In this document: piece after piece, positions 16,292 to 49,804 of the stretch
Layout of the letters: each line of letters opens with the position of its first letter
Position numbering within the stretch: position 1 is the stretch's first letter
From: an uncultured Clostridium sp.
GTDB lineage: Bacteria; Bacillota_I; Bacilli_A; RF39; UBA660
NCBI GenBank assembly: GCA_964649575.1
Contig: CAZYRI010000002.1
Span: 1 to 57,492, forward strand
Direction of reading: 5' to 3'
Length of the DNA: 57,492 bases
Notes under the pieces: model-generated
Told to the model about the DNA's origin: nothing
Seen by the model: only the letters and a program-made list of their open reading frames with translations
Database searches by the model: none
Position numbers and translations under genes: made by a program

Positions 16292-16731
16292 AAAAGATAG
16301 TTTTATCAATATTGTTTATATCATTATTATCTGGTTGTAATTTACTTGATACTGAAGTTAATTGTAATAAAACTGCTAATACTGAAAATTATAATTATAA
16401 TATTGATATGAGGTTAATATTTGATAATAAAAATGAACTTAAAAGAGTGGTTTCTAATATAAGATATCAATTAACTGATAAAGGTATGGAAAATATTGAA
16501 CTTATGGAAGAAACATTAAAAGAGAAAAAGAATACTTATGATAAAGGTGTTTATGTTAAAGTGGATTATACTATTAATAATGGTAAGATAGAACTAACAG
16601 AAGATATAAATGTTAGAAATATTAAAGATTTAACTACATATTATGATTTATCTACTAGTTATATAGGTGATAAAACTAATAAAGATGATGTAAAGGGTAA
16701 ACTTCGTGAGAATAATTTTACTTGTAAATAA
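16282..16731 (+). CDS. Lipoprotein, unknown function
   Basis: Lipobox LLSGC at aa 15-19, and a 10-nt overlap with the upstream gene. Confidence 0.6.
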   Translation: MEIKKIVLSILFISLLSGCNLLDTEVNCNKTANTENYNYNIDMRLIFDNKNELKRVVSNIRYQLTDKGMENIELMEETLKEKKNTYDKGVYVKVDYTINNGKIELTEDINVRNIKDLTTYYDLSTSYIGDKTNKDDVKGKLRENNFTCK

Positions 16732-22265: not shown

Positions 22266-22973
22266 ATGAGAAAGAAAACTATTGTTATAACTGGCGGTTC
22301 TAATGGAATTGGAAAACATATTTCTTTACTATATTTAAAAGATAATTATAATGTTTGTGTTATTGATAAAGATTGTAATAATAAAAATATAGATATTGAT
22401 TATTATATTGGTGATATTTCGAATGAGTTTCAAATGAGAAGTATTTTCAAAACTATTGGTTCTAAATATAAAACTATTGATATTCTTGTTAATAATGCTG
22501 CTAGACAAGAAATATCTAGTTTTGAAAAAATGTCTATTAGTAGTTTTAAAAGCATTATTAATAATAATTTAAATGGTGTGTTTATATGTAGTAAATTTGC
22601 TTATAAATATATGAAAAGTGGTTCTAAAATACTTAATATTTTATCTGTTCATCACTTTAAGCCTAGAATGAATAAATATCATTATGATGTATCTAAAGCA
22701 GGAATAAGAATGTTAACTAAAGAGTTAGCTTTAGAATTAGCTTCTAAAAATATTACGATTAATTCATTATCTTTTGGAGCAGTTAAAACTAATATGAATA
22801 AAGAATGGTTAGATAATACTGATGAGGTTAATGATGTTATATCTAAAGTTCCATTAAAGATTTTATTTGAAGCTAATGAGATTGCTTCTTTTGCAAAAAG
22901 TATTCTTGATTTATTTGCAACATATACAACTGGTAGTGATTTTATTATTGATGGTGGGAGAAGTTTGGTATGA
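22266..22973 (+). CDS. Short-chain dehydrogenase/reductase (SDR)
   Basis: ITGGSNGIGK (TGxxxGxG), NNAA, and catalytic YDVSK (YxxxK). Confidence 0.85.
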   Translation: MRKKTIVITGGSNGIGKHISLLYLKDNYNVCVIDKDCNNKNIDIDYYIGDISNEFQMRSIFKTIGSKYKTIDILVNNAARQEISSFEKMSISSFKSIINNNLNGVFICSKFAYKYMKSGSKILNILSVHHFKPRMNKYHYDVSKAGIRMLTKELALELASKNITINSLSFGAVKTNMNKEWLDNTDEVNDVISKVPLKILFEANEIASFAKSILDLFATYTTGSDFIIDGGRSLV

Positions 22974-23971
22974 CAAATGTTTTTAAAAAAACTAAGAAAG
23001 TAGAGACTAATAAAGGTGAATTTGGTTTTTGTAAATATAATAATAAAAGATATTTTTATAAACAAGTGAGTGATGTGTCTACTGAAATTAAAAGATATAA
23101 AATATTATCTAATTATTATAAAACTCCAAGTTTAATTAGTTCATTTGATAATATTATTATTTATGAATTAAAAGATTCATTGGTTAATTATACTATTCAT
23201 GAATATCTTTATAAAGAAAATATTGATTTTGATTTTAATATTATTATAAAACAATATAAAAATAATTTAGAATCTACTTATCTAATATCTGAGAATAATT
23301 TAATAAATAAAAAGTTTTATAAAGATAGGGTAAAGGCAGTAAAAGATTATTTATCTGATAATAAATTTAATCAAATTTATATATATAATTATAAAGAGTG
23401 TGATATTCGAAAAATATTAAATGATACTGTTAATCATATATCTTTAGATAAAAAATTATATTCATTTATAACAAATGGAGATCCTACTGATACTAATATA
23501 TCAATAGATGGTTACTTTTCTGATTATGAGTGTGCCGGATATAATAGTATTGTTGGTGAAATTGCTATATTTGTTATTTCAATATTAACACATGGATCTT
23601 ATTTTTATCCAAAATATAATAAAAAAGTTTATTCTTTTAGACCATATATCTTAAAAGAATATAATAAATATAAAATTAGTGTTAATAGAAGAAACAATAA
23701 GATTGATGGGAAGATTAAAGTTGCTTTTAAAAATAAAAATTTGGTTCTTGATTATTTAGAATTTTATAATGATACATTGTGTTCAAGAGTCAAAGAAAAC
23801 GTGAATCAATATTTAAAATATTATTTAATAATGCGAGTACTTACTCCAATAAATGTTCTTAAAATTGATGATTCAGATTTTAATACAATAGTATTTCTTA
23901 TTATAAAGTTCAGTGAAATTAATTCTTTAGAAGATTTAATAAAATTAATAAGAGAGTGTGATTTATTATGA
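22970..23971 (+). CDS. Aminoglycoside/choline-kinase-fold phosphotransferase-like protein
   Basis: TNGDPTDTNISI aligns with the (H)xDxxxxN catalytic loop. FSDYECAGYNSIVGEIA aligns with the IDxEYAGxN...D segment of the LicA/APH family. ATGA overlap with the SDR gene. Confidence 0.5.
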   Translation: MTNVFKKTKKVETNKGEFGFCKYNNKRYFYKQVSDVSTEIKRYKILSNYYKTPSLISSFDNIIIYELKDSLVNYTIHEYLYKENIDFDFNIIIKQYKNNLESTYLISENNLINKKFYKDRVKAVKDYLSDNKFNQIYIYNYKECDIRKILNDTVNHISLDKKLYSFITNGDPTDTNISIDGYFSDYECAGYNSIVGEIAIFVISILTHGSYFYPKYNKKVYSFRPYILKEYNKYKISVNRRNNKIDGKIKVAFKNKNLVLDYLEFYNDTLCSRVKENVNQYLKYYLIMRVLTPINVLKIDDSDFNTIVFLIIKFSEINSLEDLIKLIRECDLL

Positions 23972-24696
23972 AATATTTAGAAGTTAGATATTGTGATTTC
24001 TTTGATGAAAAAATATATTTAAATGAAAAAATAAATAATTTGTTTAATGATATTAATAAATATACTTTAAATAATATTGATAAGATAAGTGAACTATGTA
24101 ATAGTAAAGTGTTTAAAGTTCCTAGTTATATTAAAGAATGTGCATGGGGAAGTGAAAAAATATTTTTAGCTTTTTCAAACAAGTTATTTAAAGTAATAGA
24201 TACTTCATTAAATGATACTTCTTTACAATTACATCCATTAAAAAAAGAAATATGGTATCCAATAAAAAATTGTGTTATAAATGATGGTAAAAAAGATATA
24301 TCTGTTGATAAAACAGATAAAATAATTATAAAAGAAAATACTGTTCATTCATTAAGAAAGGGTTCTATTGTATTCGAAATTCAAGATAATACTTTATTTA
24401 ATCATTTGGAAACTATACGTATATATGATGAATCTAATAGAGAAATACATGAAGATAGATTTTATTCTCATAATATGCCTATGTTTAGAAATAAAATTAA
24501 AATTATTAAAAGGCTAAAAGGAGAAAAATGTGTATTACAAAAGAATTCATTTATATATTCATTTGATAAAATAAATATTCTTAATGAAACTAGATATGAA
24601 ATAAATAAAAATGAACTTTGGTATTTATCTAAGGGAACAGAAATTCTTGATGATGGGGATTATTTAATAATAGAATGTAAATTTTTTAAGTTATGA
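23968..24696 (+). CDS. Cupin-fold protein, type I phosphomannose-isomerase-like
   Basis: WGSEKIF ... SLQLHPLKKEIWY resembles the PMI motif ...WGsE... lSvQvHP...KtE.Wy. ATGA overlap upstream. Confidence 0.45.
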   Translation: MKYLEVRYCDFFDEKIYLNEKINNLFNDINKYTLNNIDKISELCNSKVFKVPSYIKECAWGSEKIFLAFSNKLFKVIDTSLNDTSLQLHPLKKEIWYPIKNCVINDGKKDISVDKTDKIIIKENTVHSLRKGSIVFEIQDNTLFNHLETIRIYDESNREIHEDRFYSHNMPMFRNKIKIIKRLKGEKCVLQKNSFIYSFDKINILNETRYEINKNELWYLSKGTEILDDGDYLIIECKFFKL

Positions 24697-24703
24697 GGTT
24701 ATT

Positions 24704-25318
24704 ATGAAAGTGTTTTATATATTAAAGCCGGATATGTTAAGAAATAGAGATGCTCTTAAATATTATGAGAATGGTGTGCTTGATAGTTTGTTTGTTCATG
24801 ATGCTGAATTCTTTTATATAAGAGAGTGGACTGAATTTTCAAAAATGTTATATGATCAGGATGAAAATTTAACTTTAGAACAATTAAAAGATAAAAGAAA
24901 AAAGGTTTTAACCACAATTTTGGGTTATGAAAAGTATTTTAATGGTGAGAGTGCTGTTTTGAATACTTTTAATATACCTGATGATGAAAAATGTTTAAAA
25001 GAATTATTTGATTTTAAAAAGAGATTAAGAAGGCTATTTGTATATGGTACTGATCAACATTTTGTAAGTATTTCTAATTCTGAAATTATTCCTTTTCAAA
25101 ATAAGATTATTACATATGATTTAGATGAACTTGATTTAGAATATAGAATTTTGCCTTCTAATGCAGTTATGGATGATGAAAGGTTTAGAATGATATTTTT
25201 TAATAAAATACATTTTCCAGATCCTGATAGTGTTTCTTTAAAAAAAGATTTAGAATTACTGAGGGAATATGGTGTTTTTGAAGAAAAAAATAAAATATTA
25301 CATTTGGTGGTGAGATAG
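24704..25318 (+). CDS. Hypothetical protein
   Basis: 204-aa ORF in the operon with no motif I can assign. A superficial 'ILKPD' N-terminus is insufficient for an NDK call, because the NxxHGSD motif is absent. Confidence 0.5.
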   Translation: MKVFYILKPDMLRNRDALKYYENGVLDSLFVHDAEFFYIREWTEFSKMLYDQDENLTLEQLKDKRKKVLTTILGYEKYFNGESAVLNTFNIPDDEKCLKELFDFKKRLRRLFVYGTDQHFVSISNSEIIPFQNKIITYDLDELDLEYRILPSNAVMDDERFRMIFFNKIHFPDPDSVSLKKDLELLREYGVFEEKNKILHLVVR

Positions 25319-26064
25319 TGGATTATTCATATATTTTAAAGAAGCTTAATAAGGATTATCCTATAAAATATATTGAACTTATTAATAAAGTAGTAAATTC
25401 AATGATTTCTATATTCGATGATAACTTGATTACAATAGTTCTTGGTGGTTCCTCTGGAAAAGGAAATATTATTGAGGGATGGTCTGATATAGATTTATAT
25501 GTTATATTAAAAACTTATGATGTTTATGCGATTAGTGATATTACAAAATATATATCAAAAGAGAAAATACACATTGGTATAACATATTATTTATATGGTG
25601 AAGTTGTTAATAATATAATTGATGGAAAAACAAAAATAATGTTATATGAGAAACAAGTATATAAAGTTAATCCAACACTATATGGTAGTGATACAATCTT
25701 TAATAAGATTTCTTATAGAGAAGTAAAACAAAATGATAAAAATTCATTTTCTGCGGTACTTCATGATATAAGAAGAAGGTGTATGAGTTTATATACTAAT
25801 AAAGATGAAAAAATAGAAAAAACATATATTAAAAAATTATTAGTATTAGTTAAATGTATTTTAAATTATTATGATATATTTTCATATGGATATGATAAAA
25901 CATTTACTAAATTCAAACTATTATGTGATTTAAAATATGGTGAATTGACTAGTATAAATAATTTTAATATAATGAAGGTAATTAATAATATAAATAGTTC
26001 TAAGGAAGATGTTTTAAAGTTTTCTTTTGAATTATTTAAACTAATAGAAAAAATTAATTTATGA
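25318..26064 (+). CDS. Pol-beta-superfamily nucleotidyltransferase (ANT/KNTase-like) with a helical C-terminal domain
   Basis: GGSSGKGNIIEGWSDIDLYVIL matches the G[GS]x9-13D.D signature. The GTG start overlaps the preceding stop by 1 nt. Confidence 0.6.
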   Translation: MDYSYILKKLNKDYPIKYIELINKVVNSMISIFDDNLITIVLGGSSGKGNIIEGWSDIDLYVILKTYDVYAISDITKYISKEKIHIGITYYLYGEVVNNIIDGKTKIMLYEKQVYKVNPTLYGSDTIFNKISYREVKQNDKNSFSAVLHDIRRRCMSLYTNKDEKIEKTYIKKLLVLVKCILNYYDIFSYGYDKTFTKFKLLCDLKYGELTSINNFNIMKVINNINSSKEDVLKFSFELFKLIEKINL

Positions 26065-29048: not shown

Positions 29049-29104
29049 AATGAAAAAACAATTATATTGTTGTATAATATTTTTAACATAAGGAGTTGAT
29101 AGTC

Positions 29105-30940
29105 ATGGGTAGTAGTATCTTTTTTCCTTTAGGAGCTTTACCTTTTAGTATTTTAATGATAGTTTTATTCACTCATAAAACTAATTCTTATAATAAAGAA
29201 ACAAAAATATATAAGGTATTATTATTTTCTAATTTGTTTGGTCTTATATTAGAATTGTTATGTACACTCGCTTCTTCAATATATAATAATTATTCTTTTA
29301 TAAGTAATTTTATATTTAAGTCATATTTATTTTATATGATAGTTTGGATTTCTACACTTGCTTATTATGTTTTTAGTATTTCTTCTGAAAATCAGAATAA
29401 TATTTTTAAAAGTAGATATACATTATTTGCTATATATTATAGTATCATCATTATTGCTCTTGTATTTTTACCAATTCAGTTATTTATAAGTGATGACTTT
29501 CAAGTTAGATATACTACTGGATTAAGTGTTAATTTGGCATACTTTATTTCTATTATAGCTATTATTTTTATTTTTATAGTTTTAATATTAAATTATAAAA
29601 AATTATCAAATAAAAAATATTTTCCAATTATTATTTTCTTTATTATAGGTTTAGCAGCCATGTATATTCAGTTTAATTTTCCAGAACTTTTATTATTGAC
29701 ATATGTAGAAACTTTTATTACTGCGATTATGTATTTTACTATTGAGAATCCTGATGTAAAGATGATTGAACAATTAAATAAAGCTCGTGATGAAGCTATT
29801 AAAGCTAATCAAGCTAAAACTGATTTTTTAAGTAGTATGTCTCATGAAATAAGAACTCCTTTAAATGCTATATGTGGTTTTAGTAATAGTTTACTTGAGA
29901 GTGATGGGATAAGTAATGAAGCTAAAGAAGATGTTAAAAATATTATTATGGCTAGTGATACATTACTTGAACTTGTTAATGGTATTTTAGATATTTCTAA
30001 AATTGAAGCTAATAAACTTGAAATTGTTGATTCTGTTTATAGTTTTAAGAAAGTGTATGAAGAACTTATTTTACTTACTAAAGCTAGAATAGGTGAGAAA
30101 CCTATTGATTTTAGATATAATTATGATGAAACAATACCAGAGTATTTGTATGGTGATGGTGTTAGAGTTAAACAAGTAATAATTAACTTACTTACTAATT
30201 CTGCTAAATATACAAAGGAAGGTTATATAGATTTTAAGATAAACAGTATTTGTAAAGATAATATTATAAGATTAATTATAAGTGTTGAAGATTCTGGTAT
30301 TGGAATTAAGAAAGAAAGTATTGATAAGCTATTTACAAAGTTTGAAAGACTTGGTGTTGAAAAACAAACAACTACTGAAGGAACTGGTCTTGGGCTTGCA
30401 ATTACTAAGAAACTTGTTGAAATGATGGGTGGAAAAATAGTAGTTCAAAGTATATATGGTAAAGGCAGTATATTTACAGTATCTATTGATCAAAGAGTTC
30501 TTAGTGAGGAAGAACTTAATAAAGTAATGAAAGAAAAAGTAAATGAAGAAGAGACTAGTGAAATAATAGATGCGACTGGTAAAAATGTTTTAGTAGTTGA
30601 TGATAATTTATTAAATCTTAAAGTTGCTGAAAGACTTTTAAAAGTATATAAATGCAATATTACTTTTGCTAGTAGTGGAAGTGAATGTTTAGATAAAGTA
30701 AGTAATAATAAATATGATTTAATATTACTTGATGATATGATGCCTAGAATGACTGGTAGTGAAACACTTTTGAAATTAAAAGAAATGGATTTATTTGATA
30801 CACCAGTCGTTGCTTTAACAGCTAATGCGATTACAGGTATGAAAGAGGAATATATAGGTAAAGGATTTAATGATTATTTAAGCAAACCAATTGTTAAGGA
30901 AGATTTAAATAGGGTTATGAAAAAATATTTGAAGAAATAA
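29105..30940 (+). CDS. Hybrid sensor histidine kinase: polytopic membrane N-domain, HisKA, HATPase_c and a C-terminal receiver
   Basis: ~6 TM helices. H-box FLSSMSHEIRTPLNAI. N/G boxes are NLLTNSAKYT, DSGIGI and GTGLGLAI. The receiver is VLVVDDN...ILLDDMMPRMTG...ALTANA...K. Confidence 0.88.
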   Translation: MGSSIFFPLGALPFSILMIVLFTHKTNSYNKETKIYKVLLFSNLFGLILELLCTLASSIYNNYSFISNFIFKSYLFYMIVWISTLAYYVFSISSENQNNIFKSRYTLFAIYYSIIIIALVFLPIQLFISDDFQVRYTTGLSVNLAYFISIIAIIFIFIVLILNYKKLSNKKYFPIIIFFIIGLAAMYIQFNFPELLLLTYVETFITAIMYFTIENPDVKMIEQLNKARDEAIKANQAKTDFLSSMSHEIRTPLNAICGFSNSLLESDGISNEAKEDVKNIIMASDTLLELVNGILDISKIEANKLEIVDSVYSFKKVYEELILLTKARIGEKPIDFRYNYDETIPEYLYGDGVRVKQVIINLLTNSAKYTKEGYIDFKINSICKDNIIRLIISVEDSGIGIKKESIDKLFTKFERLGVEKQTTTEGTGLGLAITKKLVEMMGGKIVVQSIYGKGSIFTVSIDQRVLSEEELNKVMKEKVNEEETSEIIDATGKNVLVVDDNLLNLKVAERLLKVYKCNITFASSGSECLDKVSNNKYDLILLDDMMPRMTGSETLLKLKEMDLFDTPVVALTANAITGMKEEYIGKGFNDYLSKPIVKEDLNRVMKKYLKK

Positions 30941-30982
30941 AAAAATATGCTATAATGGTTGTAGGGTAAGGCAGGTAGGAAA

Positions 30983-31762
30983 ATGGAAGATGTTAATTTA
31001 TTAGTAACAAATGGAGTTAATATAGAAAAAGCATTAGAACTTTTCGGCGATATGGAAATGTACAATGCAACTTTAAAAGATTTTTTAGATATGGTTGAAG
31101 GTAAACTTTCAGCTTTAAAAAGATTTAGGGAGACAGGCGATATGCCTAATTATGCAATTGAAGCTCACTCTTTAAAAAGTGATGCTAGATATTTAGGATT
31201 TGTTGATTTAGCTGAACTTGCTTATCAATTTGAACTTAAAAGTAAAGCAAATGATATAATGTTTATTTATGATAATTATACTAAACTTATTAATGAAGCT
31301 AGAAGAATGATTAATGTTTCTAAAAAATATTTAGGTATGGATATAAAAGATGATTTAATTGCTGATATGACTAATCAAGTAAAATATGAATCTATATTAA
31401 TTGTAGATGATTCTAACTTAGTAGCTAATTTTATTAAAAAAATATTTAATGATAAATATGATTGTATTATTGCTCATGATGGGGCTGAAGCTATTGAAGC
31501 AATTAATTCGCCTGATAGTTATAGAATTAAATGTTGTTTACTTGATTTAAATATGCCTAATGTAAATGGATTTGAAGTTCTTGAATATTTTAGAAAAAAT
31601 AATTTATTTGTTAAAGTTCCTGTATCAATAATAACTGGTAATGATACTAGAGAACAAGTAAGTGAAGCATTTAATTATCCAATAATTGATTTATTATCTA
31701 AGCCATTTAATGAAAGAGATATAAAGAGAATTATTGAAAAAACTTTAGCAAATTATAATTAA
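30983..31762 (+). CDS. Hpt (histidine phosphotransfer) domain fused to a stand-alone receiver domain
   Basis: The Hpt motif is AIEAHSLKSDARYLGF. The receiver is ILIVDDS...CLLDLNMPNVNG...IITGN...SKP. No DNA-binding or enzymatic output is present. Confidence 0.8.
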   Translation: MEDVNLLVTNGVNIEKALELFGDMEMYNATLKDFLDMVEGKLSALKRFRETGDMPNYAIEAHSLKSDARYLGFVDLAELAYQFELKSKANDIMFIYDNYTKLINEARRMINVSKKYLGMDIKDDLIADMTNQVKYESILIVDDSNLVANFIKKIFNDKYDCIIAHDGAEAIEAINSPDSYRIKCCLLDLNMPNVNGFEVLEYFRKNNLFVKVPVSIITGNDTREQVSEAFNYPIIDLLSKPFNERDIKRIIEKTLANYN

Positions 31763-31784
31763 GAGTTGAAACTCTTTTTTATTT
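31761..31784 (+). terminator. Weak Rho-independent terminator
   Basis: aagagt-tgaa-actctt followed by a T run. Confidence 0.45.
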
Positions 31785-31815
31785 GGGTTATCATATTTTT
31801 AAGGAGATGAAAAAT

Positions 31816-33078
31816 ATGGAAGTACCATTTAAAAAATGTGATATTTTAATTCCTAAGAAGGGAATTAATTATAATTTATGGAGTGTTATTGCTTGTGATC
31901 AATATACAAGTCAAGTTGAATATTGGGATAAGGTAAAAGAGTTAGTTGGAGAAAATCCATCAACATATAATATTATTTTACCTGAAGTATATCTTGAAAA
32001 TAATGATGTAGAGGACAGAATAAAGAAAATTAATGAAACAATGAATGCTTATTTAAATGAAGATTTATTTGAAACATTACATGACACTATGATTTATCTT
32101 GAAAGAACTGATTCTACTGGTAAAGTAAGAGAAGGTCTTATTGGTATGATAGATTTAGATAGTTATGATTATAATGTTGGTAGTAAGAGTTTAGTAAGAG
32201 CTACTGAAAAAACTGTTATAGAAAGAATTCCACCTAGAAAGAAGGTTAGAATTGATGCAGCTCTTGAACTTCCTCATATTATGATTTTAATAGATGATGA
32301 AAAGAAGGATATTATTGAGTCATTAAAAAATAAGGTTACAAGTGATGATGTAGTTTATGATTTTGATTTAATGATGAATGGTGGTCATGCTAAGGGGTAT
32401 AAATTAAATGATGCTGTTATTGATGAGGTAACGAAAAAACTTGGTGATTTAGGTGAACTTGAATACTTCAATAATAAGTATGGTATTAACGAAACTGCAC
32501 CTTGTGTTTATGCTATGGGTGATGGAAATCATAGTTTAGCTACTGCTAAAGCATGTTATGAAGAGTTAAAAGAAAAAATTGGTGAAGATGCAGCTAAAAA
32601 TAGTCCTGCTAGATATGCTCTAGTTGAACTTGTTAATATTCATAGTGCCGCTCTTGATTTTGAACCAATTCATAGAGTTATATTTGATTGTGATGTTGAA
32701 CATTTACTTACTAATTTATATAAAAAGTTTAAAATTAATACTGATGGTAATGGTCAAAAATTAACTTATATTACTAGTGCAGGTGAAAAAACAATTTATA
32801 TTGAAGATCCAACAAGTAATTTAGCAGTTGGTACATTACAATGTTTCTTAGATGAATATTTAAAAGAATTTGCTGGTAAAATTGATTATATTCATGGTGA
32901 TGATGTTACTAGAAGTATGGGAAGTGAACAAAATAATATAGGATTCTTACTTCCTAAAATGGAAAAGAGTGATTTGTTTAAATCAGTTATATTAGACGGT
33001 GCTCTTCCAAGAAAGACATTTAGTATGGGGCACTCAGATGATAAGAGATTCTATCTTGAATGTAGGAGAATTAAGTAA
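31816..33078 (+). CDS. DUF1015-family protein
   Basis: ~420 aa. I recognise the overall pattern as DUF1015-like (N-terminal ...F.K..ILIP, ...VIACDQYTS..., IADGNHS-type 'MGDGNHSLATAK', ...EPIHR). The ORF opens at 31783, but the RBS AAGGAG favours ATG 31816. Confidence 0.6.
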   Translation: MEVPFKKCDILIPKKGINYNLWSVIACDQYTSQVEYWDKVKELVGENPSTYNIILPEVYLENNDVEDRIKKINETMNAYLNEDLFETLHDTMIYLERTDSTGKVREGLIGMIDLDSYDYNVGSKSLVRATEKTVIERIPPRKKVRIDAALELPHIMILIDDEKKDIIESLKNKVTSDDVVYDFDLMMNGGHAKGYKLNDAVIDEVTKKLGDLGELEYFNNKYGINETAPCVYAMGDGNHSLATAKACYEELKEKIGEDAAKNSPARYALVELVNIHSAALDFEPIHRVIFDCDVEHLLTNLYKKFKINTDGNGQKLTYITSAGEKTIYIEDPTSNLAVGTLQCFLDEYLKEFAGKIDYIHGDDVTRSMGSEQNNIGFLLPKMEKSDLFKSVILDGALPRKTFSMGHSDDKRFYLECRRIK

Positions 33079-33086
33079 GAATATAA

Positions 33087-33120
33087 AAAATGTATTTGTG
33101 GTGAATACATTTTTATTTTA
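33087..33120 (+). terminator. Rho-independent terminator
   Basis: aatgtatt-tgtggtg-aatacatt followed by TTTTATTTT. Confidence 0.7.
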
Positions 33121-33190
33121 AGTAAATTTTAAAATTAAAACATTGTATTTTAAATGTAGATTTGCTATTATTTATAATAGGTGATGGTAT

Positions 33191-35092
33191 ATGAGATTGT
33201 ATAAAAAATATTTATATTTAATATTATTTATGGTGTTTTTAATGACCAATGTTAATGCTGCATCAGTTTATTCTACTTATGATATTGCTATGAAAAATAC
33301 TGATACATATATTACTAAATTTAATAAATATAATTTATTTATTGATTCTAATAATAAGTATTTTTATAATGGTAGTGCATTAAGTAAATTAACTGGTTTT
33401 ATTAATGGAGGTTTTTTAAATAAATATGAGTTTGATACTTCTCTTGATAGTAACAATGATTCTTATTTAATAACTGGTTCTAGATATTGGACTATGACTG
33501 GTTCTAACAATTTAGTTTATTATTTAGATATTAGAAAGTTAAATAGGGCTTTTAGTAATGATAGTTTGGAATCGAGAATTACTGAGCTTATTATTCCAGA
33601 AACTATGGTAACAGGTACTGGTAGTCATGATAATCCTTGGGTATTTGTAGTGCCTGAATTTAAAATAACAATTAATATTCAAAATGCTAGTATTAATGGA
33701 AATAAGACTATTAATGAAACTATTGTTGGTTATAATAAAACTTATAGTTTAACTCCAGATCAAAGTTATTATATATTTAAAAATAAAGATGGAGACTTAG
33801 TATGCGATAATACTATTGGCAGTTATAAAATTGTAGATAATAAACTTATTCTTGATGATTTAAAAGGAAATGGAAGTTGTACTATTAAATACAGAGGTAT
33901 GGATGTTGTAGCTAATATTGTTGCGACTAATGGCACTTCACAATCTACAAAATTAACTGGTGAAGCAGGTGATACATTAAGTGCTGAAGTTAATCCTAAT
34001 AATGGTTATGCTTATGATAGTATTAGTTGTACTAATAGTCAGAATGGTAGTTATTCTTCAAAAAAGTTAACTATTACTAATATTACAAAAGATACAACTT
34101 GTACTGTTACTTATGGTAAACCAAATTCAAAAACATTTACTTTTGTAGCAAGCGAGCAAACATATAATGTAGAATATAGTGGTTATTATATTTTAGATAG
34201 CTATGGAGCACAAGGTGAAAATGGAGGAAAAGGTGCTAAAGCTACTGGTACAATTTATTTAAATAAAGGTGATATTCTTACTATTAATACTGGTGGTGCT
34301 GGTAGTAATAGTGGTTCTTCTAAAGGATATAATGGTGGAGGATCTGGTCAATATTATGGTGGTGGAGCATCTACTGTTAAAAGAAATGGAACTATATTAA
34401 TTGCTGCTGCTGGTGGAGGTGGCGGAGTGAATGGAACTGATGGCGGAACTGGTTCAGGTAAAGGTGGTGCCAGTGTTGGAGCTGGTGAAGGAGCTAGTGG
34501 AACAAATGCTGGCGGTGGAGGCTCTAGTTATGACTATCATTATCAAGCAAATTGTAGTAATTGTTATTATGGAAGCAATACTTGTACAGGAGGTTATATT
34601 TCTACTAACTGTAGTAGTTGCCATCATACTGTAAAGGAATGTCAAGGTGCATATGAGTCATATACATATGGAAGTAGTGGAGGTTCTGTTTGTACTACTT
34701 GTGTTAATGGTAGCTATGGTTCTACCTATGATTCAACTAATAATGTAAATTGCGGAAGTGATCAAAAAGTTTGGTCTTGTGGAAGCTGGCCTACTTGTGG
34801 CAATAGTGGTTCAGTTTGTAAGTCTTGCTCTGGATATTGTGTTGGACAAAAATATAATTCTTGTGCTTCCTATAGTTATCAATGTGTTTATGGTTGCGAT
34901 GAAACATATAGTGCATGTGCAACTGGTTCAAATACTTGTTCATATGGATGTGATAATTTAACTAAAAATTATTTACCGGGAAATGGTGGAACTAATATAT
35001 TTTCTTCAGCACTGAAAAATGTAAGTGAGAATTATGGAAGTAGAACTTCTGATGGAGAAGTAACAATTAGTTTTCATGGGGAGGATTTATAA
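33191..35092 (+). CDS. Secreted multidomain protein P1: shared N-domain, Ig-like middle region, ALK/LTK-type glycine-rich domain and a CxxC-rich tail
   Basis: Signal peptide ...MTNVNA/AS. The N-domain is shared with 35931 and 51107 and ends GTGSHDNPWVFV. The glycine-rich domain pattern is YNVEYSGYYILDSYGAQGENGGKGAKATGTIYLNKGDILTINTGGAG...GYNGGGSG..YGGGASTVKRNGTILIAAAGGGGG. About 20 Cys occur in the following ~130 aa. Confidence 0.8.
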   Translation: MRLYKKYLYLILFMVFLMTNVNAASVYSTYDIAMKNTDTYITKFNKYNLFIDSNNKYFYNGSALSKLTGFINGGFLNKYEFDTSLDSNNDSYLITGSRYWTMTGSNNLVYYLDIRKLNRAFSNDSLESRITELIIPETMVTGTGSHDNPWVFVVPEFKITINIQNASINGNKTINETIVGYNKTYSLTPDQSYYIFKNKDGDLVCDNTIGSYKIVDNKLILDDLKGNGSCTIKYRGMDVVANIVATNGTSQSTKLTGEAGDTLSAEVNPNNGYAYDSISCTNSQNGSYSSKKLTITNITKDTTCTVTYGKPNSKTFTFVASEQTYNVEYSGYYILDSYGAQGENGGKGAKATGTIYLNKGDILTINTGGAGSNSGSSKGYNGGGSGQYYGGGASTVKRNGTILIAAAGGGGGVNGTDGGTGSGKGGASVGAGEGASGTNAGGGGSSYDYHYQANCSNCYYGSNTCTGGYISTNCSSCHHTVKECQGAYESYTYGSSGGSVCTTCVNGSYGSTYDSTNNVNCGSDQKVWSCGSWPTCGNSGSVCKSCSGYCVGQKYNSCASYSYQCVYGCDETYSACATGSNTCSYGCDNLTKNYLPGNGGTNIFSSALKNVSENYGSRTSDGEVTISFHGEDL

Positions 35093-35502
35093 TGAAAAAG
35101 GTATTAATAATAATAATCTGTTTAATTATGATTGTTGGTTGTAAAAACAATAAAAATGAAAGTGATAATAAAACTACTACAACAACCACAATAACAAATA
35201 CTACTAAATATGTTGAACCAGCTGTATTTACTAAAATGGATATAAATAGAAAATTATATGACTTTGGAATAGAAATATATAAAAATAATTCATATACAAG
35301 GTATTCTAAAGTAAATGGAAAATACTTTATAAGTTTAAATGATATGGTAAAAGATTTTAAATTTGATGATTCTAAAATGATTGGTGCAACTTCTAAAAAA
35401 GTTTGCGACCATGAAAAAACAGGTATATATTTTGATATAGATAATGTAGAAAAAGTAGAATATAAAGAATATCCAATATTAATAGCTGTATATTGTGATT
35501 AG
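35092..35502 (+). CDS. Small lipoprotein L1 (poly-Thr linker type), paralog of 37207-37599
   Basis: Lipobox IVGC, then a TTTTTTITNTT linker, then ...YFISLNDM...FDDSKM...KKVCDHEKTGIYFDIDNVEKVEYKEYPILIAVYCD. The ATG overlaps the P1 stop by 1 nt, and RBS GGGGAGGA precedes it. Confidence 0.8.
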   Translation: MKKVLIIIICLIMIVGCKNNKNESDNKTTTTTTITNTTKYVEPAVFTKMDINRKLYDFGIEIYKNNSYTRYSKVNGKYFISLNDMVKDFKFDDSKMIGATSKKVCDHEKTGIYFDIDNVEKVEYKEYPILIAVYCD

Positions 35503-35509
35503 GAGGCAT

Positions 35510-35851
35510 ATGAAAAAAATATTTATGATAATATTATCAGCTTTTATTGCAATTTTACTTACTGGTTGTGGTAAAACTGATGAAGAAATAGAAAAAGATT
35601 TTGAAAATAAAGTAAGCAATACATTGATGGATTATTCATTACAAATATATAATAAAAAGCAATATTTAAATTATAAAATAAGTGATACTGAGTATTATAT
35701 ATCTTTAAAAAGTTTAAAAGACTTAGGATATGATACTTCTATGTTTATAAAGCCAACTAATAAGGTTTCATGTGATAGTGAAAAAACTGGTATTACAATA
35801 ACTATAATTGATGAAACATTTAGTTCATCATTTAGTTCACTTTGTAAGTAA
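35510..35851 (+). CDS. Small lipoprotein L2, paralog of 37675-38025
   Basis: Lipobox LTGC, then ...YYISLKSLKDLGYD...KVSCDSEKTGITITI...SSLCK. The ORF opens at GTG 35495, and ATG 35510 follows AGGAGG. Confidence 0.75.
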   Translation: MKKIFMIILSAFIAILLTGCGKTDEEIEKDFENKVSNTLMDYSLQIYNKKQYLNYKISDTEYYISLKSLKDLGYDTSMFIKPTNKVSCDSEKTGITITIIDETFSSSFSSLCK

Positions 35852-35930
35852 TTTAGAAATATATATTTTTTTAATAAATTTGTGTTTATAAATGTTTAGC
35901 ATGTGCTATAATTACAATAGGAGGATGTAT

Positions 35931-37187
35931 ATGAAAAATATGTTAAAGAAATTTGGGTTATTGGTTATATTATTTACAATTACTATTTCTGTTTCAGCAA
36001 GTAGTTATTCAAATTATGATAAAGCTGTTAAAAATACTGATACTTTTATTACAAAGTTTGATAAGTATAGTTTATTTATTGATACTACTAATAAGTATTT
36101 ATATGATGGTACTTTATCAAGTAAAAACGGATTTAAAAATGGTGGATTTATTAATACTTATGAGTTTAATCTTACGACTGATAAGAATAATAATACTTAT
36201 CTTTCAACAGGTTCAAGATATTTTACTATGACTGATTATGATGATACTGTTGATATTGTTGATATTATAAATATTGTTAATAAAAATAAGAGTGAGTCTT
36301 TTGAATCAAGAATTACTGAATATATAAGATATTTTGTTAAGGTTAATGGTAGTGGAACTAGAACTAATCCTTGGGTTTTTGTTGATAATTATACTTATAA
36401 TTTATTATTTAATCCTATGGGTGGAAATGTTACACCTAATAGTAAAAAGGTAACTGTTTTAGAAAAATATGGTGATTTGCCTGTTCCTACTAGGGTTGGT
36501 TATGATTTTAAAGGATGGTATTTTGAAAATAGTTATATTAATGAAGTAAAATCTGATAAAATAGTTGAAATTGATGAAGATACAACTGTTTATGCTAAAT
36601 GGGAGATAAAAAAATATAATGTCACTCTTACAGTTAGTAATGGTTCAAGTTCTCCAACTTCTGTAACAGTTAAACATTTTGATAATGCTGTGTTTAATTT
36701 AACTCCAAATAGTAATTATGAATTTACTAATTCTAAAGTAACTTGTGATAATGGAGCAACTGGTAGTGTTTCTAATAATACAATTACTGTTAGTAATATT
36801 ACTGCTAATACAAATTGTAGTATTTCTGCAACTCCTATGTATACTTGTTCAGTTGGTACTTTAAAATATGATACAAACAAAGGATATATTTGTACTAAAT
36901 CTGGTACATTTCATAGTGGAGATTGTGATTGCTATACAACTAGTGTAAAGTGTGGTTGTAAAAGTGCTTCAGATTTTTGTAGTCAATATAATGATTATGA
37001 TAGTTGTATGGATGCCAGTTGGATATGTATGGGTCCTATTGAATCTGATTGTTGTTTTGGTGATAATTATTGTGATAGAGATTATTGTGATTGTTATGAT
37101 GACTATTATTCATGTGATGGCTCATGGAATAATTATTCTGGCTCTGGTTCATCACTTGTATGTTATAAAGCAGCTACTTTAAAATAG
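35931..37187 (+). CDS. Secreted multidomain protein P2: shared N-domain, one Listeria-Bacteroides (Flg_new) repeat, an Ig-like region and a very Cys/Asp/Tyr-rich tail
   Basis: Signal peptide ...ISVSA/SS, with the N-domain ending GSGTRTNPWVFV. The Flg_new repeat is YNLLFNPMGGNV...YGDLPVPTRVGYDFKGWYF...VYAKWE. There are 16 Cys in the last ~115 aa. The ORF opens at 35892, but AGGAGG at 35919-35924 favours 35931. Confidence 0.8.
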   Translation: MKNMLKKFGLLVILFTITISVSASSYSNYDKAVKNTDTFITKFDKYSLFIDTTNKYLYDGTLSSKNGFKNGGFINTYEFNLTTDKNNNTYLSTGSRYFTMTDYDDTVDIVDIINIVNKNKSESFESRITEYIRYFVKVNGSGTRTNPWVFVDNYTYNLLFNPMGGNVTPNSKKVTVLEKYGDLPVPTRVGYDFKGWYFENSYINEVKSDKIVEIDEDTTVYAKWEIKKYNVTLTVSNGSSSPTSVTVKHFDNAVFNLTPNSNYEFTNSKVTCDNGATGSVSNNTITVSNITANTNCSISATPMYTCSVGTLKYDTNKGYICTKSGTFHSGDCDCYTTSVKCGCKSASDFCSQYNDYDSCMDASWICMGPIESDCCFGDNYCDRDYCDCYDDYYSCDGSWNNYSGSGSSLVCYKAATLK

Positions 37188-37206
37188 AAAGGAATATAAG
37201 TTAAAT

Positions 37207-37599
37207 ATGAAAAAAATAGTAATGATTATTATGTGTTTATTTATAATTGTAGGTTGTGATAATGCTACTAAAAAAGAAAATAATAATACAACAACAACCA
37301 CTACTACAAGGAAGGTTGAGGCTCTTTCTTTTCAAGATATTGGGGATTTATTATTTGATGAAGCAATTAAGTTATATAATGATAAAGAATATTTAAAATT
37401 TGATAAAGAAAATAATAAATATTATATTACTTTAGGTAATTTAGTAAATAAATATAATTTTGATGATTCAAGGTTGATTAATCCTGAAAATAATAAAAAA
37501 TGTGATCGTGAAAAAACAACTATATATTTTGATATAGACCATGTAGATAATATTGAATATGAGAGATATCCTATAACAATTGCATTATTTTGCAAATGA
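37207..37599 (+). CDS. Small lipoprotein L3 (poly-Thr linker type)
   Basis: Lipobox IVGC, then NNTTTTTTTRK, then ...YYITLGNL...FDDSRL...KKCDREKTTIYFDIDHVDNIEYERYPITIALFCK. Confidence 0.8.
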   Translation: MKKIVMIIMCLFIIVGCDNATKKENNNTTTTTTTRKVEALSFQDIGDLLFDEAIKLYNDKEYLKFDKENNKYYITLGNLVNKYNFDDSRLINPENNKKCDREKTTIYFDIDHVDNIEYERYPITIALFCK

Positions 37600-37627
37600 T
37601 TTGTTGTTTTATATCTGTGTCTGCATA

Positions 37628-37656
37628 TTGTGAATAATTTAATTATATGCTAAAAT
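37628..37656 (+). promoter_or_regulatory. Possible internal promoter for lipoprotein L4
   Basis: TTGTGA (37628-37633), a 17-nt spacer, then TAAAAT (37651-37656), in the 75-nt gap before 37675. Confidence 0.35.
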
Positions 37657-37674
37657 ATGTAATCAGGTGATTTT

Positions 37675-38025
37675 ATGAAGAGAATTATTTTAATTACTAC
37701 ATTATTATTGCTATGTGGATGTGGTAAAAATGATGATATAAAAAATGAATTATCTATTTCAGAAATGAATGATATTTTATTTGAATATGGTGATTCATTA
37801 TATGAAAATGAAGAATATAAAAATTTTGATTTAGTTGATGGACAATATTATATTTCTTTAAGTGATTTAAAAATAAAATATAATTATAATTTTGATAATT
37901 TTATTAATGAAGAAACACATAATGTTTGTAATAAAGAAACATCTGGTATATATTTTGATATAAATAATGTTAGAAAACTTGAATATTATAAGAATCCAAT
38001 AGTTGTTGATTTAAAGTGTGAGTGA
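37675..38025 (+). CDS. Small lipoprotein L4
   Basis: Lipobox LCGC, then ...YYISLSDLK...HNVCNKETSGIYFDINNVRKLEYYKNPIVVDLKCE. Confidence 0.8.
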   Translation: MKRIILITTLLLLCGCGKNDDIKNELSISEMNDILFEYGDSLYENEEYKNFDLVDGQYYISLSDLKIKYNYNFDNFINEETHNVCNKETSGIYFDINNVRKLEYYKNPIVVDLKCE

Positions 38026-38037
38026 TCACACTTTTTT
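38013..38037 (+). terminator. Rho-independent terminator ending the duplicated module
   Basis: aaagtgtga-gtga-tcacacttt plus a T run, overlapping the stop codon. Confidence 0.7.
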
Positions 38038-38082
38038 AGTATAAAAAATTTAATTATTAATATAATTTACTAGAGGTGAATT

Positions 38083-38574
38083 ATGATTAATAGACAAAAT
38101 ATGTGGTTTTTAACTTTATTTTCTTTAATACTGATATTAGGTGTATATTATATAACTTTACCTAGTGAAATATTCAGTAAGAATGGAATAGAAACAGTTA
38201 ATAAGAATATTGATATTAAAGTAAGTGAGAATGATAAGTTGGTTGCTTTAAGGGCTAGTAGAAATGAAAAAATAAGTACAGTAATGAGTGAACTTCAAGA
38301 AAAGATTGTGTCACCTTCATCGAGTGCTGAAGTTAAAAATACTGCATTTGAAGAACTTCAAGTTTTAAATTTAGCAAAGGGTAAAGAAACTTATTTAGAA
38401 GATAAAATATTAAATAATTTTAAAATTAAATCTTTTGTTGAAATTAATAATGATAATATAAAAGTAACTATTTCATCCAGTGAGCATAATAATGAACTTG
38501 CTAATAATATTATGAGAAGTATTCAAGAAGAATTTAAGGATAAAAAGAATATAACTATTAAATTTGATAAATAG
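38083..38574 (+). CDS. SpoIIIAH-like protein
   Basis: N-terminal RQNMWFLTLFSLILILGVYY compares with B. subtilis SpoIIIAH KQTVWLLTMLSLVVVLSVYY. The C-terminal IKVTISSSEHNNELANNIMRSIQEEF...ITIKFD compares with INITVKSDKHSKSKATAIIDLVAKEI...VAVTFE. Confidence 0.75.
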   Translation: MINRQNMWFLTLFSLILILGVYYITLPSEIFSKNGIETVNKNIDIKVSENDKLVALRASRNEKISTVMSELQEKIVSPSSSAEVKNTAFEELQVLNLAKGKETYLEDKILNNFKIKSFVEINNDNIKVTISSSEHNNELANNIMRSIQEEFKDKKNITIKFDK

Positions 38575-38651
38575 GCGGATTTCTTTCACATTAATGTCTT
38601 TTTTTCATAAATTATCAATGAAATGATTGTATTTATGAAAGAGGGTGCATC

Positions 38652-38855
38652 GTGGGAAATATACTAACTAAAAGAGAGAAAGATGTATTTTTATTGTTAG
38701 TTCAAAATAAAACAACTAAAGAAATTGCTAGCATTCTTGATATAAGTGAGAAAACAGTAAGAAATCATGTGTCAAATGCCATGCAGAAACTTGGATGTAA
38801 AGGTAGAGCAGGAGCTGTTATTGAACTTCTTAAGTTAGGAGAAATTACATTATAA
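38652..38855 (+). CDS. GerE/LuxR-type single-domain HTH regulator
   Basis: 67 aa, LTKREKDVFLLLVQNKTTKEIASILDISEKTVRNHVSNAMQKLG. GTG start after AGAGGGTG. Confidence 0.8.
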   Translation: MGNILTKREKDVFLLLVQNKTTKEIASILDISEKTVRNHVSNAMQKLGCKGRAGAVIELLKLGEITL

Positions 38856-38881
38856 ATGACTTTTTAAGTCATTTTTATTTT
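38854..38881 (+). terminator. Rho-independent terminator
   Basis: aaatgactt-ttt-aagtcattt followed by TTATTTTT. Confidence 0.7.
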
Positions 38882-38901
38882 TATAAAGCATAATATTTAG
38901 T

Positions 38902-39831
38902 ATGAATATGATTAAAAAATGGACAATTAATAAAATTATGGTTGCGAGTCTGTCTTTATTTTTATTGTTTATGTTTAATTTAATACCAACTAAACCAGAT
39001 ATTGAAACTGAAGTGATTGAAAAAAATGAAGAATTAAAAGAAAATGTTGTTTATTTACTTGATGAAGATAATTATGTTTCTAGAGTAGTAACATATTATG
39101 ATAAATCTGACATTAAAGATGTAATTAGAAATAAGATAGATATACTTACTAATAGTGATAAGAATAACTTTTATTCATTGATTCCAAAAGGTACTAAATT
39201 AAATGATATTAAAGTTGAAAAAGATGCTGTATATTTAGATTTTAGTTCTGAAATACTTAGTGTAAATAAATATATAGAAGAAGAAATGATTGAAGCAATA
39301 ATATATAGTGTTACCGAAATAAATGGTATAAATTCTGTATATATTACAGTTGATTCTAAAAAATTAACTGAGTTGCCTAATAGTTTAAAAAAATTAAGTT
39401 ATCCTCTTACTAGAAAATATGGTATTAATAAAAAATATAATATAGATAGTTTTGATAATATTGATACTACGACTGTATATTTTTCAAAAAATAGTGATGA
39501 TGATATTTATTATGTCCCTGTTACATATGTTACAAATACTAGTGGTGAAAAAATAGATATTATTATTGAAGAGTTAAAAAGTAGTATAAATAGTCAGGAT
39601 AATTTAAATAGTTTTGTTTCTAATATGGTTGAAGTAGTTGATTATAATATAGATAATGATAAGTTTAATTTAGTATTTAATGAATATATATTTGGTGATT
39701 TAGAAAAGAATGTTATTTTAGAAGAGGTTAAATATGTTATTTCAGCTTCTATATTTGAAAATTATGATGTGAATGAAGTTGTTTTTAATACAGAAGATCA
39801 AAAAAATATTGCAGAAATGGTAAAAAAGTAA
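38902..39831 (+). CDS. GerM-like (GerMN-domain) membrane-anchored protein
   Basis: N-terminal TM helix, then two segments of the type '(V)VYLLDEDNYVSRVV' and 'TTVYFSKNSDDDIYYVPVTYV', characteristic of GerMN repeats. Confidence 0.55.
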   Translation: MNMIKKWTINKIMVASLSLFLLFMFNLIPTKPDIETEVIEKNEELKENVVYLLDEDNYVSRVVTYYDKSDIKDVIRNKIDILTNSDKNNFYSLIPKGTKLNDIKVEKDAVYLDFSSEILSVNKYIEEEMIEAIIYSVTEINGINSVYITVDSKKLTELPNSLKKLSYPLTRKYGINKKYNIDSFDNIDTTTVYFSKNSDDDIYYVPVTYVTNTSGEKIDIIIEELKSSINSQDNLNSFVSNMVEVVDYNIDNDKFNLVFNEYIFGDLEKNVILEEVKYVISASIFENYDVNEVVFNTEDQKNIAEMVKK

Positions 39832-49372: not shown

Positions 49373-49804
49373 ATGAGAACATTTTATTTATTTCAAATTA
49401 AGGATGGAGTTCTTAAAAATTATAAGAATAATTATGAAGAATTATATACTTTACTTGAAAGTATACATTATTTAAAGACTGAAGACATTGTACTTGGATT
49501 TAATATTTTTGATAAAATTGTTACTCCAATGGATAAGGAGAATGTTAATGATTATGTTAAAAAGATGAATCTAAGTAAAGAAAGTTATATTTGCTATAAT
49601 TATACTCATACTATTAATGATTTTTATTTTGATGAAACTACTAAAATGGTTATTAATAATTCTCATATTAAAATTAAGACTAATAAAAATGTGCCATCTT
49701 TTTTCTTTAATATTAGAACATTTAATAATATATTTGTTTGTGATTTTATTAATCATGATTATTTTCTATTAGAAGATTCTATATGTTCTTGCATAACCGC
49801 TTAA
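49373..49804 (+). CDS. Possible SirA (YneE)-like sporulation inhibitor of replication
   Basis: 143 aa, of similar size to B. subtilis SirA, with a similar N-terminal Y-F/Y-x-IK pattern. It lies directly upstream of a yneF homolog, as sirA (yneE) does in B. subtilis. The sequence similarity is weak. Confidence 0.35.
   Translation: MRTFYLFQIKDGVLKNYKNNYEELYTLLESIHYLKTEDIVLGFNIFDKIVTPMDKENVNDYVKKMNLSKESYICYNYTHTINDFYFDETTKMVINNSHIKIKTNKNVPSFFFNIRTFNNIFVCDFINHDYFLLEDSICSCITA

Follow-up and report, generated by a model that had tools for sequence, protein, structure and literature searches.

In lactobacilli and enterococci, the Csc/WxL clusters occur as repeated paralogous clusters, and combine small anchored partners with large, multidomain secreted proteins that have no covalent anchor. 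In ALK, the TNF-like plus glycine-rich (TG) domain is the ligand-binding module, and it binds a small cognate protein ligand. The tail fibre of phage Pam3, gp24, carries a TNF-like and glycine-rich receptor-binding tip; for folding and assembly it needs a chaperone, gp25, that attaches to precisely these two domains (PMC9608196). Receptor-binding proteins of phages include some with TG and some with DUF6273 domains (PMC9608196, PMC10743442), and DUF6273 has been reported to have a C-type-lectin-like fold (PMC10743442). Here we describe an array of six genes from an uncultured Clostridium sp., at positions 33191-38025 of a 57,492-nucleotide stretch of DNA (‘the window’; contig CAZYRI010000002.1 of assembly GCA_964649575.1, positions 1 to 57,492, forward strand). 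The array comprises two modules, P1-L1-L2 and P2-L3-L4, in each of which a gene for a large secreted protein (P) precedes two genes for small lipoproteins (L). The array differs from the Csc/WxL clusters in its domains: WxL, DUF916 and LPXTG partners are missing, and lipoproteins of a new family take their place. The array is nevertheless one of surface-protein modules with accessory anchored partners, and not a new category, and its large proteins are new members of known families (DUF6273-like, Ig-like, Flg_new and PF12810). Neither the lipoprotein family, nor its obligatory pairing with bacterial TG proteins, nor the hypervariable island itself seems to have been described before. In what follows, L1-L4 are the lipoproteins of the window; labels of the form L0xx (L006, L015, L035, etc.) denote related loci, and those of the form P0xxx, homologous proteins. 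All features of the window are on the forward strand.

P1 (33191-35092) is a secreted multidomain protein of 633 amino acids (aa), 24 of them Cys. It begins with a Sec-type signal peptide (33191-33259; aa 1-23) that ends VNA, followed by AS; its predicted structure has a helix at residues 2-20 and then a low-confidence stretch at 18-25, and the N-terminus has neither a prepilin G/FTLIE motif nor a lipobox. Next come an N-terminal domain, the ‘N-domain’ (33260-33655; aa 24-155), that is divergent but DUF6273-like, and tandem Ig-like beta-sandwich domains (33656-34120; aa 156-310) that are all-beta, are modelled with a predicted local distance difference test (pLDDT) score above 90, and account for the similarity that Foldseek found to YwfG and to PitA, a pilus tip pilin. 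The remainder of the protein (34121-35089; aa 311-633) is an ALK/LTK-like TG domain. Within it lie a Gly-rich segment (34289-34534; aa 367-448; 40% Gly) and a long beta-hairpin insertion of ~145 residues with 20 Cys (34535-34966; aa 449-592), and a C-terminal tail, aa 593-633, supplies the closing strands. A profile search found 84 homologues of P1, most of which have the same parts: signal peptide, N-domain, Ig-like, Gly-rich and Cys-rich regions, and a conserved C-tail.

The identity of the TG domain emerged from an AlphaFold2 model of P1 built on 43 of the 84 relatives (mean pLDDT 82.7). The model has a small alpha+beta N-domain, two Ig-like sandwiches, and a beta-sandwich broken by a Gly-rich coil, from which two very long beta-hairpins, modelled with pLDDT 58-76, carry 20 of the 24 Cys. 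When it was compared with the PDB by Foldseek, the first 21 ranks were all glycine-rich domain (GRD)/TG chains of ALK and LTK (E 1.6e-6 to 3e-4, probability 1.0). The Pfam family for this domain, PF12810 (ALK_LTK_GRD), matches five of the 43 aligned relatives (best E 6.5e-10), and does not match P1 itself at E<=1. From these two results we take the glycine-rich domain and the CxxC tail, which the original prediction had treated as separate and unassigned, to be a single ALK-like TG domain with a Cys-rich hairpin insertion, and P1's membership of the PF12810 family is by transitive homology plus predicted fold. The ‘hypervariable C-terminus’ of that prediction is, for P1, a domain conserved in 40-plus relatives that align over their full length.

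Like the TG/GRD modules of ALK and LTK (e.g. PDB 7NX3, 7N00, 7LRZ, 7NWZ and 7NX1), residues ~311-633 of P1 are predicted to combine a TNF-like beta-sandwich with a subdomain of ~40% glycine. The differences are that P1 has no detectable sequence similarity to the PDB chains and falls below the Pfam threshold, that the bacterial domain carries the ~145-residue, 20-Cys insertion, and that the protein in which it occurs is bacterial and secreted, and lacks both a kinase and an EGF module. Sequence searches of the PDB with P1 and with the P-family profile gave nothing meaningful, and the sole family recognized when P1 and P2 were compared with Pfam and NCBIfam was the Flg_new repeat of P2. These are bacterial proteins with a TNF-like plus glycine-rich domain of the ALK/LTK type. 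Distant TG relatives (P0121 and P0161-P0164) bear prepilin N-termini (PF07963), and the gene for P0121 adjoins T2SSF and prepilin peptidase genes, which suggests that TG is a module displayed externally. P and L are not themselves pilins; P1 and P2 have ordinary Sec signal peptides with AXA-type cleavage sites. Neither P1, which ends ...TISFHGEDL, nor P2, which ends ...CYKAATLK, has an LPXTG motif with a hydrophobic segment and basic tail, and no SLH, CWB2 or C-terminal membrane anchor was found in them either.

P2 (35931-37187) is a secreted protein of 418 aa with 18 Cys. Its signal peptide is followed by an N-domain (35997-36386; aa 23-152), a Flg_new repeat (PF09479; 36396-36599; aa 156-223) that is confirmed as predicted (E 7.8e-13; 48.8 bits against a cut-off of 27), an Ig-like domain (aa ~226-300), and a Cys/Asp/Tyr tail (36831-37184; aa 301-418) that holds 16 of the Cys. 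P1 and P2 are paralogous (BLASTP E 2e-48; 38% identity over 301 residues), as are their lipoproteins (pairwise E 1e-9 to 1e-36), and all six ORFs of the predicted paralogous modules are present. The N-domains had been judged by eye to be two-thirds identical; the measured figure is 55% (72/130). Nor do the two proteins diverge completely beyond this domain as had been thought: similarity continues at a low level to about residue 300, through a common Ig-like domain that is the second of the two in P1. The modules are, then, related in tandem but not exact copies of each other, L2 and L4 being of different subtypes, and because DNA identity between them is at most 75%, the duplication is old.

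The lipoproteins form a family with distinctive features. L1 (35092-35502; 136 aa), L2 (35510-35851; 113 aa), L3 (37207-37599; 130 aa) and L4 (37675-38025; 116 aa) have the lipoboxes IVGC, LTGC, IVGC and LCGC, respectively, all of which fit the pattern [LVI][ASTVIC][GAS]C, and the lipobox Cys is nearly invariant in an alignment of 44 members. The four align over their full length, with two invariant Cys as originally noticed (C105 and C135 in L1 numbering) and an aromatic/hydrophobic core, and their mature domains match one another with pairwise E values of 5e-9 to 4e-29. A profile search returned 78 proteins, all from metagenomes or metagenome-assembled genomes (MAGs). There are three subtypes: A, with a Thr-rich linker, poly-Thr in L1 and L3; B, of 113 aa, with a short linker and one loop (DNVEKxEY) missing (L2); and C, which is array-terminal (L4). 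In an AlphaFold2 model of L1, residues 45-136 have pLDDT >90 and fold into one long and one short helix plus three short strands; this alpha/beta domain of ~90 aa is probably closed by a C105-C135 disulfide.

No established family accommodates these proteins, in keeping with the original prediction. None of the 44 members matches Pfam, there is no match in PADLOC and nothing above cut-off in NCBIfam, and a PDB sequence search with the L profile gave nothing meaningful. Structure comparison, which had been proposed as a check and which revealed the TG fold of P1, yielded no match for the L1 model in the PDB (best E 2.4) or in BFVD (best E 1.3). The closest candidate was NCBIfam NF041428 (TrsH/TraH), of staphylococcal conjugative plasmids, which like L is a small Gram-positive lipoprotein. 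It matches 13 of the 44 members weakly (best 27.6 bits against a cut-off of 150), and hhalign relates the two (95%; E 2e-8) over the first 64 columns, which cover the signal peptide, the linker and the first helix motif, L..YG..Y.N..Y. We reject membership: the scores are below cut-off, the C-terminal two-thirds do not align, and TrsH of pUSA03 lacks the Cys pair. Nor is there a type IV secretion system (T4SS) context here. A plasmid origin was likewise set aside when tblastn of L1 against 72,556 plasmids gave no match, and a phage origin when matches to PHROG proved to be confined to the signal peptide and no BFVD match had E below 1.

Some members of the family depart from the common form. 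At locus L015 (4542-4931; also at L027, 3542-3931), a divergent L of 129 aa has nine Cys, and a linker with a run of CxxC motifs, TNDCEKCEVKECEKCETKECDEK, takes the place of poly-Thr; it may be metal-binding or redox-active. The most distant members (157-163 aa) occur at loci L008 (3-1193) and L009 (3-1736), behind large proteins of different architecture that are truncated at their N-termini. These upstream proteins end in Cys-rich tails (...CGSYACGSYACGSYVCG...CTGWNTCYK), and the start of the one at L009 (...SRWINRSKVESKESQKK...) resembles the region just after a pilin-type helix.

Could the array have come from a phage, as a domesticated cassette for a receptor-binding protein (fibre plus chaperone) or as what is left of such a cassette? 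TG and DUF6273 both belong to the phage receptor-binding repertoire (PMC9608196, PMC10743442), and the TG region of P1 matches phrog_7388, a phage family with no assigned function, at E 8e-6. Against this, the neighbourhood has no further phage genes, and the island lies with conserved synteny between housekeeping and sporulation genes; the Sec signal peptide of P and the lipobox of L are features of the cell envelope; and L has neither a structural match in BFVD nor a PHROG match beyond its signal peptide. We regard such an origin as extremely improbable.

Across genomes, the two kinds of gene keep company. The organism, an uncultured low-GC bacterium of the human gut, is related to Clostridium sp. 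CAG:524 and to MAGs labelled ‘uncultured Bacilli’ or ‘Mycoplasmatota’; human-gut metagenomes are among the samples. Wherever the sequence upstream of an L gene is visible, the gene is part of a P→L(→L) array, and such arrays are found in several lineages and in two or more chromosomal contexts. Profile searches for co-occurrence and gene order, suggested at the outset, thus found P and L linked at all loci with enough flank, and the organization first seen in the window (a constant N-domain, a variable remainder and coupled lipoprotein genes) holds at each of them. The same DUF1015 gene and spoIIIAH enclose the array in CAG:524, in three MAG species and in eight metagenome contigs. The composition of the array there varies; it can be P-A-B-P-B-C, P2like-A-P-B-C, P2like-A-P-B-P-B'-C, P-L-P-B'-C or, at locus L035, P-B'-C. 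In more distant genomes one TG-type P, or two in succession, precede an L gene beside an arginine deiminase gene. L follows TG-type and P2-type N-domain proteins only, and is not found behind N-domain proteins with Flg_new, DUF285 or LRR passengers. In the window, the P1 stop codon and the L1 start codon overlap as TAATG, as originally read, with GGAGGA within the 3' end of P1, and the ATG of L2 is 8 nt past the L1 stop. Stop/start overlaps between P and the first L are conserved in several lineages and in two chromosomal contexts, and this conservation of the TAATG type of overlap suggests that P and the first L are produced together, in stoichiometric amounts.

Our preferred reading, which we offer tentatively, is that the lipoproteins would be cognate extracytoplasmic partners of the Cys/Gly-rich tip of P, for its folding or assembly and/or its docking at the surface, and that P would be adhesin-like. 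Each module encodes one Sec-secreted P with a signal peptide, a DUF6273-like N-domain, an Ig-like stalk and a Cys-rich C-terminal tip. The tip is the TG domain in P1, and in P2 it has been replaced by the Flg_new repeat, Ig-like domain and Cys-rich tail. Each P gene is translationally coupled to one or two small L genes. In this model, the L proteins would await P on the outer face of the membrane, where it exits from Sec. There, L would bind the Cys/Gly-rich C-terminal tip, and act as a dedicated folding or assembly partner, as the holder of the finished P at the cell surface, or as both. The binding of gp25 to the TNF-like/glycine-rich tip of gp24 would be a comparable arrangement (PMC9608196), and diversifying selection together with unequal recombination between tandem paralogues would keep the island variable. 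If L proteins are dedicated chaperones or docks, they would represent a new, Gram-positive-type way to fold or retain Cys-rich adhesin tips outside the membrane, and would help when domains of this sort are to be expressed.

The likeness to gp24 and gp25 consists of a TG-type distal domain with what would be a small dedicated partner. In structure the partners differ: gp25 is a cytoplasmic trimer with beta-sandwich and helical parts, and L a lipoprotein whose predicted fold is unrelated to it. That L has no homology or resemblance to phage fibre chaperones is one of several points that weigh against the partnership we propose. P2 has no TG domain, and yet is followed by two L genes, and at locus L031 just one L comes after two TG proteins. 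No L accompanies TG proteins with a hydrophobic, putatively transmembrane (TM), segment or a prepilin sequence at the N-terminus, or P0213, an N-domain protein with 61 Cys, so TG and Cys-rich folds do not in general require L. The same proteins weaken the idea that what L partners have in common is a ‘Cys-rich tail’. In subtype A, the Thr-rich linker suits a wall-spanning tether better than a membrane-proximal chaperone. Finally, L4 remains 89-91% identical where the P upstream of it differs, so subtype C, at least, does not track the adjacent P.

A more ambitious version of the proposal would make L a new fold family of membrane-tethered partners for ALK-like TG/Cys-rich adhesin tips, a cellular counterpart of the chaperones and adaptors of phage fibres, whose co-diversification with P, in an island prone to recombination, would set the surface specificity of uncultured human-gut Bacilli. 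We think this possible but doubtful. Speculatively, a TG domain accompanied by a small genome-encoded binding partner could be said to prefigure the ALK-ALKAL receptor-ligand pair.

One competitor to a partnership is that L proteins are independent surface lipoproteins, merely co-transcribed with P and not binding it, and that both are antigens or phage receptors that diversify under the same selection by host immunity or phages. P and L diverge rapidly and together, an observation that also counts towards a partnership. At seven loci syntenic with the window, the flanking RR/Hpt (response regulator/Hpt), DUF1015 and SpoIIIAH proteins are 87-98% identical to those of the window, and P and L are 35-70% identical. 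In CAG:524, for example, P1 is 70.5%, L1 69.9% and L2 64.6% identical, and the flanks 93%. L4 is the exception; at 89-91% in the nearest genomes it is the most conserved L, and is array-terminal in all related loci. Independence would accommodate an L4 that stays the same while the neighbouring P is swapped, a ratio of L genes to P that ranges from 0.5 to 2, and an island that is hypervariable as a whole. It sits less well with the conserved P/first-L overlap and the stoichiometric co-production that this suggests, with the fact that, at all loci with flank, L was seen only in the company of a P-type gene, and with the absence of L beside N-domain proteins that carry other passengers. On balance we consider it unlikely. 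A hypervariable island between near-identical flanks is likely to be a strain-differing determinant of interaction with host, phage or immune system, and its small lipoproteins make up a new family strictly linked to bacterial TG proteins.

Recombination has evidently shaped these arrays, which expand, shrink and form chimeras across related loci. The N-terminal ~150 residues of P2 are nearer to those of a TG-type protein, P0097, than to those of P1, which indicates domain shuffling. Locus L035 (1193-3654; ENA ERZ27279222, k141_324154) has a single module between flanks that are 96-98% identical to those of locus L015. Its P is a chimera, with an N-terminal half 69% identical to the first of the two L015 paralogues and a C-terminal half 65% identical to the second (L015 2767-7264), and it retains the L genes that belong to the C-terminal half. 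A chimeric P between near-identical flanks points to contraction of the array by unequal recombination between tandem P genes, and the two cases together, to domain shuffling and unequal recombination among tandem paralogues. Hypermutation of the DUF6273-like domain by a diversity-generating retroelement (DGR) was considered and discarded; the region has no near-identical template/variable repeat pair, and there is no reverse transcriptase among the scanned ORFs of the window. A search for repeats of the phase-variation kind found no significant tandem repeats.

This variability, with modules gained and lost, also recalls polymorphic toxins, whose immunity proteins the lipoproteins would then be, and a toxin/immunity system was one of two precedents that the original prediction put forward. 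A constant N-terminal domain, varied C-terminal regions and small, tightly linked downstream genes are indeed what such a system would display. In other respects the comparison fails. No toxin domain or defence family was found in Pfam, NCBIfam or PADLOC; the C-terminus of P1 is no swapped tip, but a conserved TG fold of the receptor-binding type, common to 40-plus relatives; the other passengers (Ig-like, Flg_new) are of the adhesin type; and the proteins have Sec signal peptides, with no LXG/type VII secretion (T7SS), RHS, CdiA/TPS or MafB-type system among the scanned genes of the window. The L proteins are extracytoplasmic and present in one or two copies, do not co-vary one-to-one with P (L4 is conserved beside different P), and one of them can serve two P genes, both of the TG type, at locus L031. 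Toxin and immunity are thus very unlikely roles; the other precedent, adhesin and anchor, is still viable, and is best considered with the N-domain.

The N-domain, originally thought to belong to no named family, is a distant relative of Pfam DUF6273 (PF19789), a relationship that rests on profile comparisons. The Pfam model itself matches neither P1 nor P2 at E<=1, nor, at E<=0.001, P3 (51107-52861), a third N-domain protein of the window that lies outside the array. The top match to the N-domain profile was P0165, a protein of 4905 aa with 11 internal matches, which Pfam assigns to DUF6273 (E 6.3e-37), and hhalign of the profile against the DUF6273 repeats of P0165 gave a probability of 96.9% (E 1.5e-10) over 105 columns; by these two results, we regard the N-domain as a divergent relative of DUF6273. 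Both have the pattern ...GGLxNxxE(F/Y)...YL..G..(F/Y)WT.T...G.R...(V)xGxGxxxxP(W/Y)xF, and both are N-terminal in surface proteins of gut Firmicutes. They differ in that only the C-terminal ~105 columns align, and in that the N-domain has GxRxTE in place of the RPVI motif. The predicted secondary structure of the N-domain (two helices and short strands) is compatible with the C-type-lectin-like fold reported for DUF6273, and a PDB sequence search with its profile gave nothing meaningful. P0165 itself is very large and membrane-anchored; besides the 11 DUF6273 repeats, spaced ~275 aa apart, it contains a VWA domain and Flg_new repeats.

The domain is widespread. An exhaustive HMMER search with a 13-sequence profile against 1.84 billion representatives of clusters at 50% identity found 542 at E<=1e-3 and 347 at E<=1e-10. 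In nearly all representatives the domain occupies residues ~20-155, directly behind a type-I signal peptide, in proteins of 150-1850 aa with varied passengers: Flg_new, Gly_rich_2, Ephrin_rec_like/TNFR-like Cys-rich repeats, DUF285 and LRR_5. None of the 145 representatives inspected has an LPXTG motif or C-terminal hydrophobic anchor. That P3 has the domain too marks it as a shared module, and its constancy in hundreds of secreted proteins without another anchor leads us to infer that it serves for targeting or wall-binding, with the variable parts facing outward. This is a first anatomy of a large, unstudied secreted repertoire, at least 542 clusters at 50% identity that share one N-terminal DUF6273-like module. 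Their source is gut bacteria of small genome and low GC, of which metagenomes are almost the only record.

‘N-domain only’ proteins, ~150 aa with a signal peptide and the DUF6273-like domain, also occur (e.g. at locus L031, 8481-8945, and P0166, P0182, P0195, P0226 and P0247, among others); on short contigs, some of these may have been called incompletely, but the ORF at L031 is complete. Many other N-domain proteins (including P0180, P0194, P0215, P0260, P0271 and P0308) end ...GGxGGSGIV(I/V)IRNKR, which is Pfam Gly_rich_2 (PF21722), a second type of glycine-rich terminal domain that is distinct from the PF12810-type tip of P1. P3 comprises a signal peptide, the N-domain, four Flg_new repeats (104.9 bits) and an Asp/Cys-rich tail with poly-Asp/Ser, and is trailed 15 nt later by an unrelated lipoprotein of 169 aa (52877-53386) with no family match. 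The two form another pair of large secreted protein and small lipoprotein, in which the lipoprotein is of a different kind.

If L were instead to bind the shared N-domain, it would be the membrane anchor of P, and the C-terminal tip would point outward. P has none of the anchors that were sought (LPXTG, SLH, CWB2 or C-terminal membrane anchor), the N-domain is common to P1 and P2, both of which have L genes, the Thr-rich spacer of subtype A is typical of wall-spanning tethers, and the two TG proteins found to bring their own N-terminal anchor (a hydrophobic segment or a prepilin sequence) do without L. Most N-domain proteins, however, have no adjacent L (e.g. P3, the DUF285 and Flg_new proteins of locus L006, L032_876 and P0213), and in the L035 chimera the L genes accompany the C-terminal half of P and not the N-domain. 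A weaker objection is that the distant L proteins of 157-163 aa follow Cys-tailed proteins in which no N-domain was detected, since the N-termini of these are cut off by contig ends. An anchoring role through the N-domain strikes us as improbable, and binding of L to the tip remains the reading that we place ahead of it.

Upstream of P1 there is a promoter-like site (33149-33178) with TTTAAA, an 18-nt spacer and TATAAT, and a Shine-Dalgarno (SD)-like sequence, AGGTGATGG, immediately 5' of the ATG. Upstream of P2 there is a second such site (35885-35912), with the extended -10 sequence TGcTATAAT. Both are matches from a consensus scan only, and matches of the P1 type are frequent in such AT-rich DNA. 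An AGGAGG belonging to P2 precedes 35931 by 6 nt, and a longer ORF from 35892 is unlikely. The listed ORF of L2 opens at a GTG at 35495, with the ATG at 35510. An intrinsic-terminator-like hairpin with a T run (38013-38034) overlaps the L4 stop codon, and is the only such site within 32900-38700, so that a single terminator closes the array just as had been proposed. Rfam gave only one structured RNA, one of the two tRNAs reported by ARAGORN.

The island is flanked by conserved genes: upstream (29096-33078) by those for a hybrid histidine kinase, an Hpt/receiver protein and a DUF1015 protein, and downstream (38083-39831) by spoIIIAH, a small GerE/LuxR-type regulator and gerM. The GC content of the window is ~25%, and it includes sporulation and peptidoglycan genes, among them a SirA-like sporulation gene at 49373-49804. 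Sporulation genes thus occur in a genome of ~25% GC whose relatives are small (1.2-1.5 Mb contigs) and sometimes labelled ‘Mycoplasmatota’. Between genes for a short-chain dehydrogenase/reductase (SDR) and a NUDIX protein, at 22970-26064, are four ORFs (333, 242, 204 and 248 aa) without a Pfam family save for one marginal NosD-like match. Further upstream, at 11681-16731, lies a cluster of three genes, for a secreted papain-family cysteine protease of 972 aa with a C-terminal type-I dockerin, for a protein of 559 aa with Cadherin-like beta-sandwich repeats and a C-terminal membrane anchor, and, overlapping, for a 149-aa lipoprotein with the lipobox LLSGC. At locus L001, dockerin-bearing proteins adjoin the array, and DUF6273 and dockerin are combined, which hints at surface display of the cohesin-dockerin type in this clade.

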